A stretch of DNA of 64,000 nucleotides from Escherichia phage I29. The notes below the pieces were generated by a model. The model did no database searches, was not told the DNA's origin, and was given only the letters and a program-made list of their open reading frames with translations. A program made the position numbers and the translations under genes. Below, one piece after another: positions 38,405-53,640 of this stretch. The first letter of the stretch is position 1, and the number at the start of each line of letters is the position of its first letter. The stretch is from sequence record ON286975. One strand, given 5' to 3'.

Positions 38405-38565
38405 TCTGGTGCACGATTGCATACCTTGGACAGATAATCTCATTACAGAGCGTTTAAGAGCTTCCTACAAACAAATCTCTCTTTCGAGCGTAGCGAGAAC
38501 GCACGTCCGTTTTGACCCAAATCACCATACGCTCGGATTTTAACCAAACCCTCGCGGCGTTTCTG

Positions 38566-38594
38566 TTGACACATTACCGATCCAGTGATAGTAT
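38566..38594 (+). promoter_or_regulatory. sigma70-like promoter
   Basis: TTGACA-17-TAGTAT, upstream of a 29-aa hydrophobic ORF at about 38627-38716. Confidence 0.5.
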
Positions 38595-39045
38595 CCACAC
38601 ATAGTTTGTAGAATATGGAGTACACAATGAGAACATTGTCCGAAGTTTTAGTGGTGATCCTGATGATCATTACGTCCATAGCGGCTGTTGCCGGAATACT
38701 CACGGGTGGAACATGATAAACACACATGCATCTGAAGAGACATCCAAAGGAGTGACTATATGTCCCTTGGCTGAGCCAGTGAAAGAGGAAAACTTAGATT
38801 CTGAAGATTCTCCATCTTCGCTCCAGGTAGATCCTGAGGCTGATGACCTAACGTGGGAAGACATCGTAGACATCTGGTTCTCCATTATGCCTGAGCACGA
38901 AGAGTTCAGAGGTGGTAGACTATGAAGCACCGAGCCCACACAGGTTCCTCATGCTAAAGCATGGCCTGAAGAGGCAAACGTGCATAATTCCTGTGCATTG
39001 TGACGTATAAAACCCGTTCACACTCTCATTTCCAGAGGAGATTTT

Positions 39046-39261
39046 ATGAAGATAGAAATATTTGGTGGAGCTGACAACACTCGTGGCCTGATTTACCTGG
39101 AATTCGATGAATCATACCTGCCAGAGGTGTTAAATATAGACTCTGTTGCTGAGGCTTTGGGAGTAAACCCTAAAGAACTCCACTCTTGTGCTGAGATCGA
39201 TGGTTGGGAAGAGACCATGAACATTGATTTCAGTGAAGTAGAGGATGAACCGCTGGACTGA
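39046..39261 (+). CDS. small acidic protein, last gene of the rightward arm
   Basis: MKIEIFGG start, GGAG RBS. Confidence 0.45.
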   Translation: MKIEIFGGADNTRGLIYLEFDESYLPEVLNIDSVAEALGVNPKELHSCAEIDGWEETMNIDFSEVEDEPLD

Positions 39262-39388
39262 CACACAATTAGCTGCCCGACTAAAGGGCTGGAAGCACCT
39301 ATAACACATCTTTCAACTAAATTTCCTACCACCACAATCACTTACCTCCCACACATGACTGTTTGCTTGTTTAGTGAGCAGTCATGCC

Positions 39389-39416
39389 TTGACATTCTTG
39401 CCTATCCTGATAAAAT
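39389..39416 (+). promoter_or_regulatory. sigma70-like promoter facing a non-coding region
   Basis: TTGACA-16-TAAAAT just after an 8-bp-stem hairpin (catgactg...cagtcatg); no convincing ORF downstream. Confidence 0.45.
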
Positions 39417-39894
39417 TAAGTTCTTCTCTTTTCTTTTACCGAGTAATTCGGGTTTTCTGTTCTCTTCGGTTTGAAGGGGTATGGAGATACACCTGAGTGA
39501 ACAGGGTGAACAACCGAACATTTGGCTATGGCATTAGCATGGCGAAGCGGACGGGTGACGAAAGAGGGGCCGGAGGACACCAGTCACTGCCATATGATAT
39601 ATGGGTGATAACCTGAAGAGTCTGAATAAGTGTTTAAGTACCAGTCAGAGGAAAAGGTGAATGGTAGCCGAAGGGGGAGGGGGGTTTCTTGTATCTTTAA
39701 TTTGTATATTATGTATACACTCGTAAACCAATCTCATCTGAATCTGTTTACCACACAAAGTAGATAGGGACAAATATCACCTATTAAACTTGAATTATTT
39801 ATAGAAAATACCACAACACCACTTAAGTCTTTGATTTTACACACAAATTCTACAGATATTCAACCTCCATATTTAACATACTTGTAACATATTC

Positions 39895-40440
39895 CATACT
39901 CTACCTGTCTGATCAATTTCCCCAACCACATCCTCCATATTTTCCCTGTCTGTACTACCCCTGCCCCGCCGTGAGTCCCGTCATATCTGGCTTTCCAGCA
40001 AATATCACACCCACAAATATCATTGCCTGAAGAGGGTTTCATCTCATAATATATGCCTTACCTGAAGAGCGCTTCATACACCACGTAATTTTTTTTTTAA
40101 TTGACCCCCTCCCCGCCGCTGGAGAGGTTGGCTTTTCCCACACAGACCTGAAGAGTCAGCCAGAAATATCTGAACAGGCCCAATTCTACCACGATTTTGA
40201 CCTGACCTACAGGAGTGCTGCCAGGCGGACGAAATGGGAATCATTCTCATTCTTATAACAATTCTCAAATATCGAGGCAGTGAGGCAAATTAATAGGTGA
40301 GGCCGTTCACACAATGGCACAACATTTGCAACCTATCTTGTGGGAGTGAATGAGAATACCTATCATTGTGAGAATAGTTATCATTACGGGCAATTTAACA
40401 TAATACCCATTATGCGCACCGCTGGTGATACATACAGGGA
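39895..40440. repeat. direct repeat copy 1 (546 bp)
   Basis: Identical to 40489-41034 as far as compared; track ORFs inside the two copies translate identically. Confidence 0.85.
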
Positions 40441-40543
40441 AAATATGGAGGATGTGGTTGGGGAAATTGATCAGACAGGTAGAGTATGCATACTCTACCT
40501 GTCTGATCAATTTCCCCAACCACATCCTCCATATTTTCCCTGT
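40434..40543. repeat. 110-bp perfect palindrome at the junction of the two repeat copies
   Basis: 40441-40488 is the exact reverse complement of 40489-40536, and the match extends 7 bp further on each side; centre gtatg|catac. Confidence 0.85.
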
Positions 40544-41034
40544 CTGTACTACCCCTGCCCCGCCGTGAGTCCCGTCATATCTGGCTTTCCAGCAAATATC
40601 ACACCCACAAATATCATTGCCTGAAGAGGGTTTCATCTCATAATATATGCCTTACCTGAAGAGCGCTTCATACACCACGTAATTTTTTTTTTAATTGACC
40701 CCCTCCCCGCCGCTGGAGAGGTTGGCTTTTCCCACACAGACCTGAAGAGTCAGCCAGAAATATCTGAACAGGCCCAATTCTACCACGATTTTGACCTGAC
40801 CTACAGGAGTGCTGCCAGGCGGACGAAATGGGAATCATTCTCATTCTTATAACAATTCTCAAATATCGAGGCAGTGAGGCAAATTAATAGGTGAGGCCGT
40901 TCACACAATGGCACAACATTTGCAACCTATCTTGTGGGAGTGAATGAGAATACCTATCATTGTGAGAATAGTTATCATTACGGGCAATTTAACATAATAC
41001 CCATTATGCGCACCGCTGGTGATACATACAGGGA
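40489..41034. repeat. direct repeat copy 2 (546 bp)
   Basis: Period 594 bp relative to copy 1. Confidence 0.85.
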
Positions 41035-41325
41035 TTGATAACATGAGTTACAGTTTACACACATAACAATTATATTTCTTACTATTTGTGTGGGATATAG
41101 TTAGCAACCAATAGATTAGATATTGACCTGTAGACTTCCAACCGTCTAGACGTCTAAACGCCCACACAACAAGGCTTATACATACACAACTGAATGTAAA
41201 CAGGGCCGCAAAAATGCTACCATACCAGATTGTAAATTTTCATGCAGCACTTGACAAAGAGGAGAAAAACTTGTCTGACATAATGGTGACACTGAACATA
41301 ATTGACATGCCTGACTGTTTACGCT

Positions 41326-41420
41326 ATCACTATTCACTCCCTTTACTGTTTACATTCTCAATAGTTTACATGTCTAATAGTTTACATAGCTAACTGTTCA
41401 CGCATAGATTGTTTACTCAA
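41326..41420. repeat. iteron-like array of GTTTACA motifs at ~17-bp spacing
   Basis: ctgtttacat, aatagtttacatg, aatagtttacata, actgttcacg, gattgtttactc; further copies in both orientations across 41050-41930. Confidence 0.6.
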
Positions 41421-41491
41421 AAATGATAAGCCATGCCATTCGTTTGCATGATAAAGATTAGCAAGTTAATAATCTTTCGCTGGCTATGCCA

Positions 41492-41709
41492 GGTGACTAG
41501 GTCACCCCTTCGGGCGTTCCTATGACATAATATAAAAGCAGGGCAACTATTAGCAGATCTATAGTTGCCTTGCTTGTTATGTCATGATTAACTAAATACA
41601 AGGCAACTATGATCTGATTAATAGATTGCAGACAAACTATCACGGGGGTGATGGTTACTGCTTTTATATTATGTCGCGACTCCGTCGCGCCATGCCATTC
41701 GTTTGCATA
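41492..41709. repeat. nested inverted and direct repeats
   Basis: 18-bp inverted arms gacataatataaaagcag / ctgcttttatattatgtc; palindromes ggtgactaggtcacc, ggcaactat...atagttgcc, cgcgactccgtcgcg; flanked by direct repeats of ccatgccattcgtttgcat at 41431 and 41691. Confidence 0.7.
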
Positions 41710-42320
41710 GTTGCCTTATTGTTACAGATAAAATAATTGTATTGTTAATTATTTCTTATCTTTCTCTTAGTCATCTAATGATTCCAGTCAGTATAGTAAT
41801 GTACAGTAAACATTAGACGACTAAAGATTTCTCTGTTTATGATAACTCACCGTGATAATTTCAGACTGTTTACGAAAAATGTTGACACCTAAGCTGATTT
41901 ATGCTATGCAGTTTACACGAATAATTATTTTATGCAGGTATTGACTATTCCGTTATTCTATGGTTGGAATAAATACTTAGTAGGCTATAGAATGGCGAGC
42001 GTACGTAAATTCTGAGATCTGGCGGCTATAGTTATACTCGATTTTTCACGTAGAACACGCTTTTGTGGTTATGTAAGTGTATGACTTATAAAGATTTTTA
42101 GTTGTTGACAAGATACTGAAGATGTGCATCAGGTTAAATTTTATGCAATAGCTGCATTACGTGCAATTTTGGAAGGAAAAACGTGTAAAAATGGCCCTGC
42201 TACCACACAATGAAAGATTATGCAATAGCTATTTTACATGTATATTTGTACAGTGTGTGGGATTGATGGCTAGTCAATTATTCCACTTGCCAGGTAGGGC
42301 CGTTTATGGTAGGAGAAGAG

Positions 42321-42352
42321 CAGACAAAAAGAAAGGGGCCTTTAAGCCCCTT
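42321..42352 (-). terminator. intrinsic terminator ending the leftward arm
   Basis: aaggggc-ctttaa-gcccctt hairpin with a U-tract on the minus strand. Confidence 0.6.
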
Positions 42353-42370
42353 GATAATTCAGTTAAGAAA

Positions 42371-42790
42371 TTATAATGATTCGTATATTTCAAAAATCCG
42401 ATTTGCCAGGTCGTTACGGTAGCGGAATTTTTCCTCACGTTTGATCATCAGATCTTTAAAGCCATATTCTTTAAGCACTTCATTAACTTTATGGCGGCAC
42501 ACCTTCATATTATCTTGAGCGTCACCAATAAACTTGTTGCTGTGGTGCATTGCTTTAATTTCTTCTTCCAGGACCAGGGCAACTACCCGGACCGGATCAA
42601 GCTGGTAGGCGGTAACATCGATGCGGCATTGTAGACGGCTTTTAACGTCTGCCACCGGATATACTGCAACCTCTTCCCCGTCAACATTGACAATAACTAG
42701 TTTACCATCGATTTCGAATCCTTTCGCCGCCGGACCGTGACAAAAAGCGTTATCAAAGCTATATGCCGGATTATTAGATTTAATGTTCAT
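42371..42790 (-). CDS. hypothetical protein
   Basis: ORF in arm orientation, AGAGG RBS. Confidence 0.45.
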   Translation of the reverse strand: MNIKSNNPAYSFDNAFCHGPAAKGFEIDGKLVIVNVDGEEVAVYPVADVKSRLQCRIDVTAYQLDPVRVVALVLEEEIKAMHHSNKFIGDAQDNMKVCRHKVNEVLKEYGFKDLMIKREEKFRYRNDLANRIFEIYESL

Positions 42791-42934
42791 GGTGTTTTTA
42801 CCTCTTAGTTAATTTTCTTACAACTTCCCTTCAAAAAAGAATATAGCAAAACTGCCGATCCCTGTCAACCAAGGATGGCATAATTTTTATGTGATCAAGG
42901 GGCTTTATTGCCCCTGACCATGTAACTTGTTGTA

Positions 42935-43198
42935 TTATTTGTTATTCATCCAGTTTTCCCAAGCTGCCTGATAATCTGCCTCACTGCGGCGGATCTCTTC
43001 TTGCTCTTCAAGCCGGATCTCTTCTTCCAGGTACCCCAAGATATCGGCTTTTTTGGTCTGGCGTAACATCCAATCATCTTTTTTGCGAGTGAAGATCTTA
43101 TAAGCTTTCTCGCAAACCTCTTTTTTGCTACCTTTCTGGACTTCAAGAACACGATAAGCCATATATTGAACTAATTTGAGCTGATCAAGACGTTTCAT
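42935..43198 (-). CDS. hypothetical protein
   Basis: AAGAGG RBS, upstream hairpin. Confidence 0.45.
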   Translation of the reverse strand: MKRLDQLKLVQYMAYRVLEVQKGSKKEVCEKAYKIFTRKKDDWMLRQTKKADILGYLEEEIRLEEQEEIRRSEADYQAAWENWMNNK

Positions 43199-52480: not shown

Positions 52481-52857
52481 GATTTTTTATCCTCTCTGTT
52501 AATTAGTGTGGTGTTGTTCACCTTGCGAGGATAAGAATAACAGAACTCTCCGAGCTGTCAACCATTAGTTAGAATTATTTTTTGGGAAGAATTCTCCAGC
52601 CGCCGCCCCTGCCAGGTTAACCATCATTTTTCGTACTCTTCTTTATGTTCCAACGCTCCCGCCATAGCCTTTTCAACCAGGGTGATAACTTCAGCGGCGT
52701 TGATCGCTACATTTTCCAGGGGATTATATTACTTTTCATTTTTGTACCTCCTCTTCAATTGTTACCTGCCCTGTAGCATAGGCCTGCCAGGCTGGCCCCG
52801 CCAGGTTGCAACGGTTAGCGCATCAGGTTAGAAAAATTTTTTGAAAAGTGTTGACAG

Positions 52858-53115
52858 CGGCCCCGCCAGGTGGCACAATATACCTATCGAAAGGACGGCA
52901 GGCACCGGTGACGGGGGAGACAACCACCGGGGATGGGCGCTGCATAAAATGAGAACGGTTATCATTATCATTTAAAAATTTATGCAAAAAATCCTTGCTT
53001 TCTTTGTCCTGTGTGATACTATAATAACAAGCCGGGGCAACAGGGGCCGGGAGACAATCACCGGGGGTGCCCGTTATTCTGCAAACGAGAATGATTATCA
53101 TTCAAAATTCTAAAT
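52858..53115 (+). other. two paralogous sRNA-like elements, each with an upstream promoter-like sequence
   Basis: Two ~60-bp imperfectly matching units (gggagacaaCcaccgggg... / gggagacaaTcaccgggg...) each ending in an ...atcattatcatt... / ...attatcattc... A/T stretch; TTGACA and TTGCTT-16-TACTAT upstream; strand assignment uncertain. Confidence 0.3.
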
Positions 53116-53228
53116 GAGAACTCCTCGCATTTAATAAATTTAATTAGCGTGCTAATTACCCTCCGTAACAATTTCCTATAAAACAGTATCCCATAAAATA
53201 TTCCCATATAGAAATTTTAAAAATCCAT

Positions 53229-53395
53229 TTCTGAAAACGAAAAATCGATTTCGTTCCCAAAAATTTCAGGTCGAGCTCCGGAACGATTTCCAGAAAATCC
53301 GATTCAGAAAACGAAAAACAGATCGAGTACTGAGAAATTTATCGAGAAAAATTTTCAGAAAATTCAATCTTTGAAACGAAAAACAGATCGAGTAC
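53229..53395. repeat. three tandem ~60-bp iterons
   Basis: Consensus ttcaGAAAACGAAAAAcaGATCGAGTAC repeated three times. Confidence 0.6.
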
Positions 53396-53640
53396 CCGGA
53401 AAGCTGTACCGCAACCTCAAGATAGTGGTTAGACTATTACCATAAAAAGTCAAGGGTAAGTGGAGGAAGTTCTAGTAGAAGGATGTGAGCATGTGCGGGA
53501 AATCTGTAGTGGTGGTCTGGAATATGGTGCAAACGATAGGATGAGCGATTCAGCTTGTCGCGCCTACTCTGAAAAATCCATTTTAGTTTTCGATCCATTT
53601 TCTGATTTTCTAAGAATTTTAAAATATCTGGTCCGGTGAA

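Follow-up and report, generated by a model that had tools for sequence, protein, structure and literature searches.

A repeat-rich region at the genome ends of Vequintavirus phages as a possible terminus-processing and packaging module

Introduction

The left end of the bacteriophage T7 genome carries a 160-bp terminal repeat followed directly by about 12 copies of CCTAAAG at a 13-nt period (nt 175-341, checked in the sequence), with the promoters A0 and phiOL in the same stretch and related CCTAAAG copies preceding the right repeat. These arrays, the function of which is itself unproven, were reportedly named SRL and SRR by Dunn and Studier in 1983, and Chung and Hinkle are said to have linked a hairpin DNA intermediate to duplication of the terminal repeat in 1990. 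The inverted repeat of the T7 hairpin is located on the right-end side. Here, we analyzed a 64,000-nt stretch of the genome of Escherichia phage I29 (ON286975; hereafter the window), in which a non-coding region at 41040-41960 combines short phased repeats, including an array of GTTTAC motifs, with a 152-nt nested inverted-repeat element. By analogy, the T7 concatemer junction appears to be its closest known counterpart.

Repeated short motifs beside a cut, bound by small terminase, are also found in lambda (cosB R1-R3), SPP1 (pacL/pacR boxes) and P1 (pac hexamers). In ICP1, the pac terminus lies in a 1.3-kb space lacking open reading frames (ORFs), late read coverage peaks at the same genome end, and linked rolling-circle initiation and packaging were suggested (ICP1 paper). 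For phage rV5, the corresponding stretch of 2.6 kb was drawn as a grey 'non-coding' box and left unexplained, the genome was termed circularly permuted, and the ICP1 DNA polymerase was listed among the closest homologues of the rV5 polymerase (rV5 paper). Phages resembling rV5 and phi92/phAPEC8 are widely used in therapy cocktails and typing sets. The terminal repeat itself is published; the papers retrieved contained no description of the boundary-anchored arrays or of the conserved three-way-junction element.

Position of the repeat region at the genome ends

A megablast search with the region returned about 120 phage records at 82-96% identity, all of them Vequintavirus (rV5-like, about 137 kb), and by these matches the window is that of a Vequintavirus phage. 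Left ends of the Gotham and HdK5 records mapped to 40818 and their right ends to 41275 (BLAST), and at least seven deposited relatives (HdK5, Gotham, YN3, bov10K2, bov22_2, ECP2309 and others) start at 40818, that is, 222 nt before the repeat region, which is matched at both ends of such records. The Gotham annotation places a repeat_region at 1-459 and 136567-137025; published lengths of the direct terminal repeat (DTR) of relatives are 458 and 459 bp, described for EdH4 and HdK5 as 'short terminal redundancies of 458 bp'. Collinear with these ends, the window holds the DTR at 40818-41275 as a single copy, in a circular-style map, so that the physical left end of the genome would be at 40818 and the right end at 41275. 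Because the termini of relatives map to these two positions, the repeat region at 41040-41960 comprises the DTR's right half and, beyond it, the 700 nt that come first inside the left genome end.

Short sequences at the cuts recur in other genera. GTGCT stands 1-4 nt before the cut at the left boundary and is conserved across genera, and the repeat starts with GGCGGAC in the window and GACGGAC in the Mydovirus KPP-1. At the right boundary, CTTGACAA(A/G)GAG..TTGT precedes the cut in both phages, the boundary sequence being CTTGACAAAGAGGAGAAAAACTTGTC in the window and CTTGACAAGGAGAGAGAATTGTGT in KPP-1. Shigella phage CM1 (MK962749.1, 105756-107175) carries the DTR twice in tandem, with the insertion exactly at 40817/40818, consistent with a circularised assembly. 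The record of rV5 (NC_011041) and many others contain one collapsed DTR copy and start at arbitrary positions. The description of the rV5 genome as circularly permuted conflicts with the later end determinations.

The region is contained in a 3.1-kb gene-free gap (39262-42370), the counterpart of which in rV5 and Murica spans 2.55-2.6 kb without genes. Rightward and leftward blocks of small genes converge there, each with its own terminator in the window (39439-39451 on the + strand, 42352-42333 on the - strand), and the cumulative GC skew reaches its maximum at 38-39 kb of the window. The rV5 paper ascribed the skew switch at 104.4-105.5 kb to transcription. No Pfam domains were found in the ORFs flanking the gap and no initiator-like gene adjoins it; no tRNA genes were found in the window.

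Boundary repeats and the GTTTAC array

The first base past the DTR, 41276, is also the first base of a set of TGACAY(AAT) repeats on the + strand (41276-41316), which start at 41276, 41287, 41303 and 41312, with TGACATAAT from 41276 on. These are followed by a GTTTAC-type array (41317-41429), all units of which lie on the + strand, with consensus YWGTTTACA and the variants GTTCAC, ATTCAC and ATTCGC. The initial annotation had described five to six motifs phased at ~17 bp in 41326-41420; the phasing was confirmed, and the block was corrected to seven units spaced 15-16 nt apart at 41317-41416, including one GTTCAC variant and one ATTCAC-type unit (period 16 in Tandem Repeats Finder).

Within the 921 nt of 41040-41960 the 6-mer GTTTAC occurs ten times, eight times on the + strand (41053, 41317, 41348, 41364, 41380, 41411, 41868 and 41911) and twice on the - strand (41196 and 41806), in agreement with the annotated occurrence in both orientations. 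This is far above chance, as 0.63 copies are expected from the rest of the window and 0.66 in 2000 dinucleotide shuffles (maximum 5; Poisson P ~1e-9). The count of at least ten GTTTACA(T) motifs given initially thus holds for the 6-mer core but not for the exact 7-mer GTTTACA, of which the region has six copies and the whole window 18 (mean in shuffles, 10.5).

The nested inverted-repeat element

Beginning about 250 nt inside the DTR boundary, the 152-nt element (41524-41675, + strand) is predicted to fold into a three-way junction. Its 18-nt arms (41524-41541 and 41658-41675) lie exactly where they had been annotated, are 100% complementary and 116 nt apart, and between them lie further, nested inverted repeats with paired arms of 15 nt (93%) and 12 nt (100%). 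In the predicted structure, a closing 18-bp perfect stem surrounds a long imperfect hairpin of GGCAACTAT motifs and a 9-bp hairpin, with a folding energy of -79.2 kcal/mol on the + strand (z = -10.8) and -72.2 kcal/mol on the - strand (z = -9.3). A short G+C hairpin, GCGAC-TCC-GTCGC (41676-41688, + strand), stands directly 3' of the closing stem. Flanking direct repeats are present and perfect, although 20 nt long rather than the 19 bp first reported: DR1 (41430-41449) and DR2 (41689-41708) are identical + strand copies of GCCATGCCATTCGTTTGCAT, 74 and 13 nt from the arms, respectively. The variable spacer between DR1 and the element (41450-41523) holds a small GGTGAC/GTCACC hairpin.

The element is a single-copy feature confined to this locus and to Vequintavirus, and 5426 E. 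coli genomes contain no copy of it. With one locus-specific copy, none in E. coli, and direct repeats that do not abut the arms, a mobile palindromic element of the miniature inverted-repeat kind was rejected. A scan of viral contigs with the 20-nt repeat as the pattern matched only two, both from Vequintavirus. An Rfam scan of 38500-43000 gave nothing at gathering scores. Its sub-threshold matches, all to microRNA precursors, fell at 40440-40540, on a palindrome made by a duplication specific to the window (described below), and were discarded as spurious, leaving no known RNA family as a candidate.

Conservation within Vequintavirus

In an alignment of the window with 19 relatives (20 genomes), nucleotide diversity (pi) and gap content changed sharply from segment to segment. 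The DTR was conserved (pi 0.063, 0% gaps) and was followed by highly variable TGACAY repeats (pi 0.30, 40% gaps) and a similarly variable GTTTAC array (pi 0.28, 48% gaps). DR1 was again conserved (pi 0.032, 9% gaps), the spacer variable (pi 0.26, 54% gaps), and the lowest pi values among these segments were those of the nested element (pi 0.023, 21% gaps) and DR2 (pi 0.005, 0% gaps); the rest of the gap (41709-42330) showed a pi of 0.06-0.10 and 0% gaps. No other long noncoding block is as conserved as the nested element, whose conservation is threefold that of the noncoding DNA around it; the element is present in 117 of 119 Vequintavirus records at an identity of at least 97%, a loop insertion in some aside; in rV5 and phita32 the apical loop carries an insertion of 33 nt. 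Among the 20 copies aligned, variation is mostly confined to loops and mismatched positions and no compensatory pair was seen, which is too little variation to probe the fold.

Copy number of the GTTTAC array, counted in 12 genomes, ranges from 1 to 7 at a constant spacing of 15-16 nt, and the dispersed GTTTAC copies at 41053, 41196, 41806, 41868 and 41911 are conserved in sequence. As indel hot spots also lie beyond the left boundary, hypervariability affects the DNA on either side of the DTR but spares the DTR. One hot spot is 12 nt outside the boundary at 40805/40806 (also at 40211/40212) and another ~120 nt further out at 40104; navn and Gotham carry unrelated insertions of 30-50 nt at these sites.

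Equivalent arrangements in other genera

The order of DTR, boundary repeats and three-way-junction element recurs in Mydovirus, Phapecoctavirus, Justusliebigvirus and two unclassified Stephanstirmvirinae phages. KPP-1, for which a 514-bp DTR and T7-like packaging (by PhageTerm) have been published, carries perfect inverted arms of 21 nt, separated by 164 nt, about 310 nt past its DTR. In Mt1B1_P17 (hereafter P17; Phapecoctavirus, a different subfamily), which has a 328-bp DTR, the equivalent element lies ~190 nt inside. In BME3 (Justusliebigvirus; published DTR 342 bp), four copies of CAACAAATA run from nt 343, the first base past the DTR, and ATTCAC/GTTTAC/ATTGCA units stand just upstream of the structured element.

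Elements of the sister subfamily (phi92/phAPEC8) from P17, phiWec181, BME3, Tr1 and phi1_175008 were aligned for covariation. The five sequences share a three-way junction and a 3' hairpin with 57 pairs, in which 98.2% of cells are paired. Compensatory double changes were detected in 12 of the 57 pairs; none of 500 shuffles reached that number, and slid controls gave 0-3. All long helices show compensatory changes, and so does the counterpart of the GCGAC-TCC-GTCGC hairpin (helix 6). Wobble pairs were strongly asymmetric, with 23 G·U cells against one A·C cell, which identifies the top strand as the folding strand. This pattern is evidence that selection acts on the top strand folded back on itself, either as RNA or as single-stranded DNA, and not on a palindrome in duplex form. 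In every lineage tested, folding is more favorable for the strand whose 5' end is at the left genome end; the difference is 5.6-7 kcal/mol for the window and KPP-1 and 8-21 kcal/mol for the Stephanstirmvirinae elements.

Scans of viral contigs with the arm sequences of KPP-1 and P17 matched 1 and 0 loci, respectively, and the 16-mer GAATGAGAATAATTAT was abandoned as a probe because it was too unspecific (120+ unrelated matches). Neighboring proteins were rejected as an anchor, as terminus-adjoining genes are not conserved between genera and the rV5 protein gp159 is shared only with Phapecoctavirus. We consider it possible, though rather doubtful, that Vequintavirinae and Stephanstirmvirinae share an undescribed terminal cis-module, in which genus-specific repeats anchored at the boundary precede a strand-specific three-way junction of 150-200 nt kept by compensatory evolution. 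Such a module would be either a new class of phage structure for end processing or priming, or else a structured immediate-early RNA synthesized from the DNA that enters the cell first.

Comparison with known systems

Several features are common to the window and T7. In both genomes the ends are defined and carry a short direct repeat; an array of direct repeats with a 6-7-nt core and a fixed period below 20 nt follows immediately inside the left copy; promoter-like sites occur in the same stretch; and an inverted repeat lies a few hundred bp from the repeat boundary. The T7-like typing of KPP-1, a relative of the window phage, adds to this likeness. In contrast, the motifs themselves are unrelated (GTTTAC/TGACAY here, CCTAAAG in T7) and without sequence similarity, the period is 16 nt rather than 13 nt, and T7 has arrays on both sides of the repeat whereas no clear phased array is seen here on the right-end side. 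The conserved three-way junction of 150-200 nt on the left-end side also differs from the simple inverted repeat on the right-end side of T7, and the window belongs to a myovirus with a genome 3.5 times larger and no phage RNA polymerase promoters.

The small-terminase sites of lambda, SPP1 and P1 resemble the boundary repeats in consisting of direct-orientation short motifs within ~150 bp of the cut on one side, a likeness drawn here by position alone; they differ in belonging to phages with cohesive ends or headful genomes and in having a fixed copy number, compared with a short DTR and 1-7 copies here. ICP1 is also a large lytic myovirus with a related DNA polymerase and a gene-free space of >1 kb at its packaging terminus, but it packages by headful from a pac site, whereas the window phage has fixed ends and a 458-bp DTR.

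The initial annotation took the region for a replication origin or a cluster of operators. Its view of the region as non-coding, cis-acting and rich in structured DNA and in repeats of the protein-binding type stands, whereas a classical iteron origin is not supported. Iteron origins (lambda ori, theta plasmids, the PLE RepA origin) likewise place direct repeats close to A+T-rich DNA within a large non-coding region, and in the PLE non-coding region repeat 3 is a proven iteron. Such origins carry three or more direct repeats of ~17-22 bp in helical phase at a stable copy number; here the period is 15-16 nt, the core is 6-8 nt and copy number varies from 1 to 7. An A+T-rich tract that might unwind (41709-41840, 27% G+C) is present but lies 290 nt from the array, beyond the structured element. 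No initiator gene adjoins the repeats and the replication genes lie elsewhere in the genome. In place of the skew and gene-orientation divergence expected of an origin, transcription converges and the skew is at its maximum, the wrong polarity, although according to the rV5 paper skew is confounded by transcription.

Possible functions of the region

We tentatively favor the reading, quite possible in our view, that the region acts as a terminus-processing and packaging module in a phage whose linear genome is terminally repetitive. From the observed location, architecture and conservation pattern, and from the structural covariation in relatives, we infer each binding and catalytic step of the following scheme. 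Concatemers would contain one copy of the 458-bp DTR between successive genomes, and the packaging machinery would recognize this junction, make a cut at each DTR boundary and copy the repeat. At the TGACAY and GTTTAC repeats, which may be multimeric binding sites, the small terminase subunit or a different end-binding protein would set the position of the cut; the repeats would then be the functional equivalent of the lambda cosB R sites, the SPP1 pac boxes or the T7 CCTAAAG arrays. The three-way junction would act as a single-stranded structure of the top strand that primes or organizes the DNA synthesis duplicating the DTR, as proposed for the T7 hairpin intermediate, or else would be a structured transcript from the incoming end.

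A number of observations weigh against this reading. The GTTTAC array is down to one or two recognizable units in navn, CM1 and RudolfGeigy, and the whole array segment is missing from V18 in the alignment, where greater stability would be expected of a recognition site with an essential role. In FV3, a clean DR1-to-DR2 deletion, apparently by recombination between the two repeats, has removed DR1 and all that follows up to and including the nested element; if this record is correct, the nested element is accessory and not essential. Unlike in T7, no phased array was detected to the left of the DTR, where CCTGAAGAG copies are dispersed and an indel hot spot lies. Covariation support is borrowed from five sequences of relatives. 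A covariance model of the sister-subfamily element had no match in the window and a marginal one in KPP-1 (E = 0.05), so that the architecture is shared by both subfamilies while homology across them is unproven. Functional assignments of the individual elements are made by position and analogy, and the strand-specific conservation of G·U pairs suits RNA at least as well as single-stranded DNA.

This last point leads to an alternative, which we rate as rather unlikely, in which rightward transcription from the incoming left end would yield the 152-nt element as a structured non-coding RNA, with the repeats serving as a promoter or operator for host RNA polymerase or a regulator and with a role in regulation or as a host-defence decoy. 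Two features of the sister-subfamily element, G·U pairs invariant on one strand only and compensatory changes in all long helices, together with the better fold of the + strand in all lineages tested would all suit an RNA, as would a terminator-like + strand hairpin at 41635-41656. The TGACAY/CATAAT repeats yield a sigma-70-like pair (CTGACA-16-CATAAT, 41275-41302, 10/12 matches), T7 has its promoters A0 and phiOL in the equivalent region, and dispensability in FV3 fits an accessory RNA. However, no upstream-adjoining promoter is conserved among genera, and a conserved sigma-70 promoter directly upstream of the element was dropped as a candidate for the same reason; nothing reached Rfam gathering scores, and the 20 Vequintavirus copies offer no compensatory pair, their variation being mostly in loops and mismatches. 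There is a precedent in phiTE, a relative in the same subfamily, which uses a non-coding repeat RNA against ToxIN (published work), but its pseudo-ToxI locus is not at the equivalent genome position. A pseudo-ToxI-like antitoxin mimic was rejected, as the phiTE escape locus lies in a co-directional tRNA/terminase-proximal cluster and has a unit of 36 nt, not 16. At the other extreme, and very improbable in our view, the region could be mostly non-functional, with slippage-prone repeats beside a recombination- and cleavage-prone genome end and a palindrome that acts as a back-up bidirectional terminator. The hypervariable copy number and sequence of the arrays, the convergence of transcription on the region, and terminator-like hairpins with T-runs on both strands (+ at 41635-41656, - as annotated in Murica) are compatible with this. 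Both gene blocks already have their own terminators, however, and the multi-helix architecture with its covariation exceeds what a terminator needs. Threefold higher conservation of the element than of the surrounding noncoding DNA, conserved dispersed GTTTAC copies, and persistence of the motif family across genera (ATTCAC/GTTTAC units upstream of the BME3 element) also speak against a lack of function.

A role in replication is possible in another form than the classical one, because both the pac terminus and the late rolling-circle origin of ICP1 map to one ORF-less genome end. In this scheme, which is unlikely, a late or secondary origin at the genome end would have its repeats recruit an initiator or nickase, 41709-41840 would melt, the element would be the nick or priming site, and rolling-circle or strand-displacement synthesis would feed packaging. 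Iterons beside a hairpin are the layout of rolling-circle double-strand origins (pMV158, pT181, geminivirus), which counts for such an origin, as do the joint presence of direct repeats, a strongly structured element and a tract of 27% G+C, the coincidence of pac terminus and late coverage peak in ICP1, and a strand-specific fold that would suit a single-strand initiation or priming site. On the other hand, the known origins for T7-type replisomes are, to our knowledge, promoter-driven, and a T7-type replisome (family A polymerase, gp4-like primase-helicase) is what the rV5 paper describes. The skew maximum and converging genes have the polarity of a terminus, though the rV5 authors tie skew to transcription; no initiator-like gene adjoins and the flanking ORFs are without Pfam domains; a 16-nt period with 1-7 copies is atypical of iterons; and FV3 lacks the structured element.

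Terminus processing and packaging, our preferred reading, overturns no principle. The placement of the terminus nevertheless provides a candidate packaging site and DTR-duplication step for the 2.6-kb region left unexplained in rV5, as well as candidates for a possible late origin or early RNA. It would help genome annotation, through start coordinates and the avoidance of collapsed or doubled repeats, and would be of use for phage engineering and for understanding how short DTRs are formed outside the T7 group.

Further features of the gap and the window

Beyond DR2, the conserved A+T-rich tract (41709-41840) contains a fourth GGCAACTAT copy (41707, - strand) and the GTTTAC copy at 41806 (- strand), and is followed by a conserved tail (41841-41960, + strand) with an invariant TTGACA at 41882 and the two conserved GTTTAC copies at 41868 and 41911. 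The first gene inside the left end (42371-42790, - strand, 139 aa) is a homologue of rV5 gp159. Its protein is 87-92% identical in Phapecoctavirus, a different subfamily, where it also stands beside the DTR; the small genes neighboring it are not shared, and some Vequintavirus, e.g., Gotham, are without a gp159 homologue.

On the other side of the DTR, the right-end-proximal noncoding DNA (39262-40817) includes the indel hot spot 12 nt outside the DTR, a 546-nt duplication and the CCTGAAGAG motif. The motif occurs at 39613, 40028, 40063 and 40148 and in duplicated copies at 40622, 40657 and 40742, so that seven of the ten copies in the whole window fall in the gap left of the DTR; KPP-1 has TGACCTGAAGTGTCAGCC on the side equivalent to these copies. 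At 39389-39700, just downstream of the final gene on the + strand, a sigma-70 promoter close to consensus (TTGACA-16-TAAAAT and a TG upstream, 11/12 matches) is followed by ~300 nt that are nearly invariant, purine-rich and ORF-poor. This stretch is a candidate conserved non-coding transcript and had no Rfam match.

The 546-nt duplication (span 39895-41034) is an exact direct repeat of 39895-40440 at 40489-41034 and takes in 217 nt from the start of the DTR, together with the left boundary. Its copies are joined by a 49-nt exact inverted copy (40440-40488) of the first 49 nt of the duplication, which makes a 65-nt palindrome centered at 40488/40489, with an ACAGGGA microhomology at the switch point. 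It is absent from relatives with an aligned left flank, and in the best matches the record covers ~600 nt less than the query does. It could be either a recent fold-back template-switch event or an assembly artefact; a doubled DTR was rejected, as the breakpoints (39895 and 40440/41034) differ from the DTR boundaries.

Several of the matching records, about 18 in all, are labeled 'Campylobacter phage' (MG065644-MG065690, some UNVERIFIED). They are 90-93% identical to the window and classified as Vequintavirus, and judging from this their host labels look wrong.

Three Fur-box-like copies of AATGAGAAT...TATCATT were found in the DTR by motif match (40829-40846, -; 40942-40961, +; 40962-40979, +). 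The palindrome AATGAGAAT-N-ATTATCATT resembles the E. coli Fur box, with 13-16 of 19 matches to GATAATGATAATCATTATC, and two to three copies also lie inside the DTRs of KPP-1, Mt1B1_P17 and BME3, making four genera with the window. Positions of these copies are 59-80 and 238-258 in the P17 record, ~50-70 and 255-273 in BME3, and 2914-2975 in L024. Host Fur or a phage regulator may use the motif as an operator. It occurs twice more in the window (52945-52975 and 53081-53105), each time just downstream of a strong sigma-70-like promoter and a G-rich hairpin. These two units of promoter, G-rich hairpin and Fur-box-like site form part of a second repeat-rich non-coding region (52740-53430), in which they are followed by tandem copies of ~60 nt containing GAAAACGAAAAACAGATCGAGTAC.

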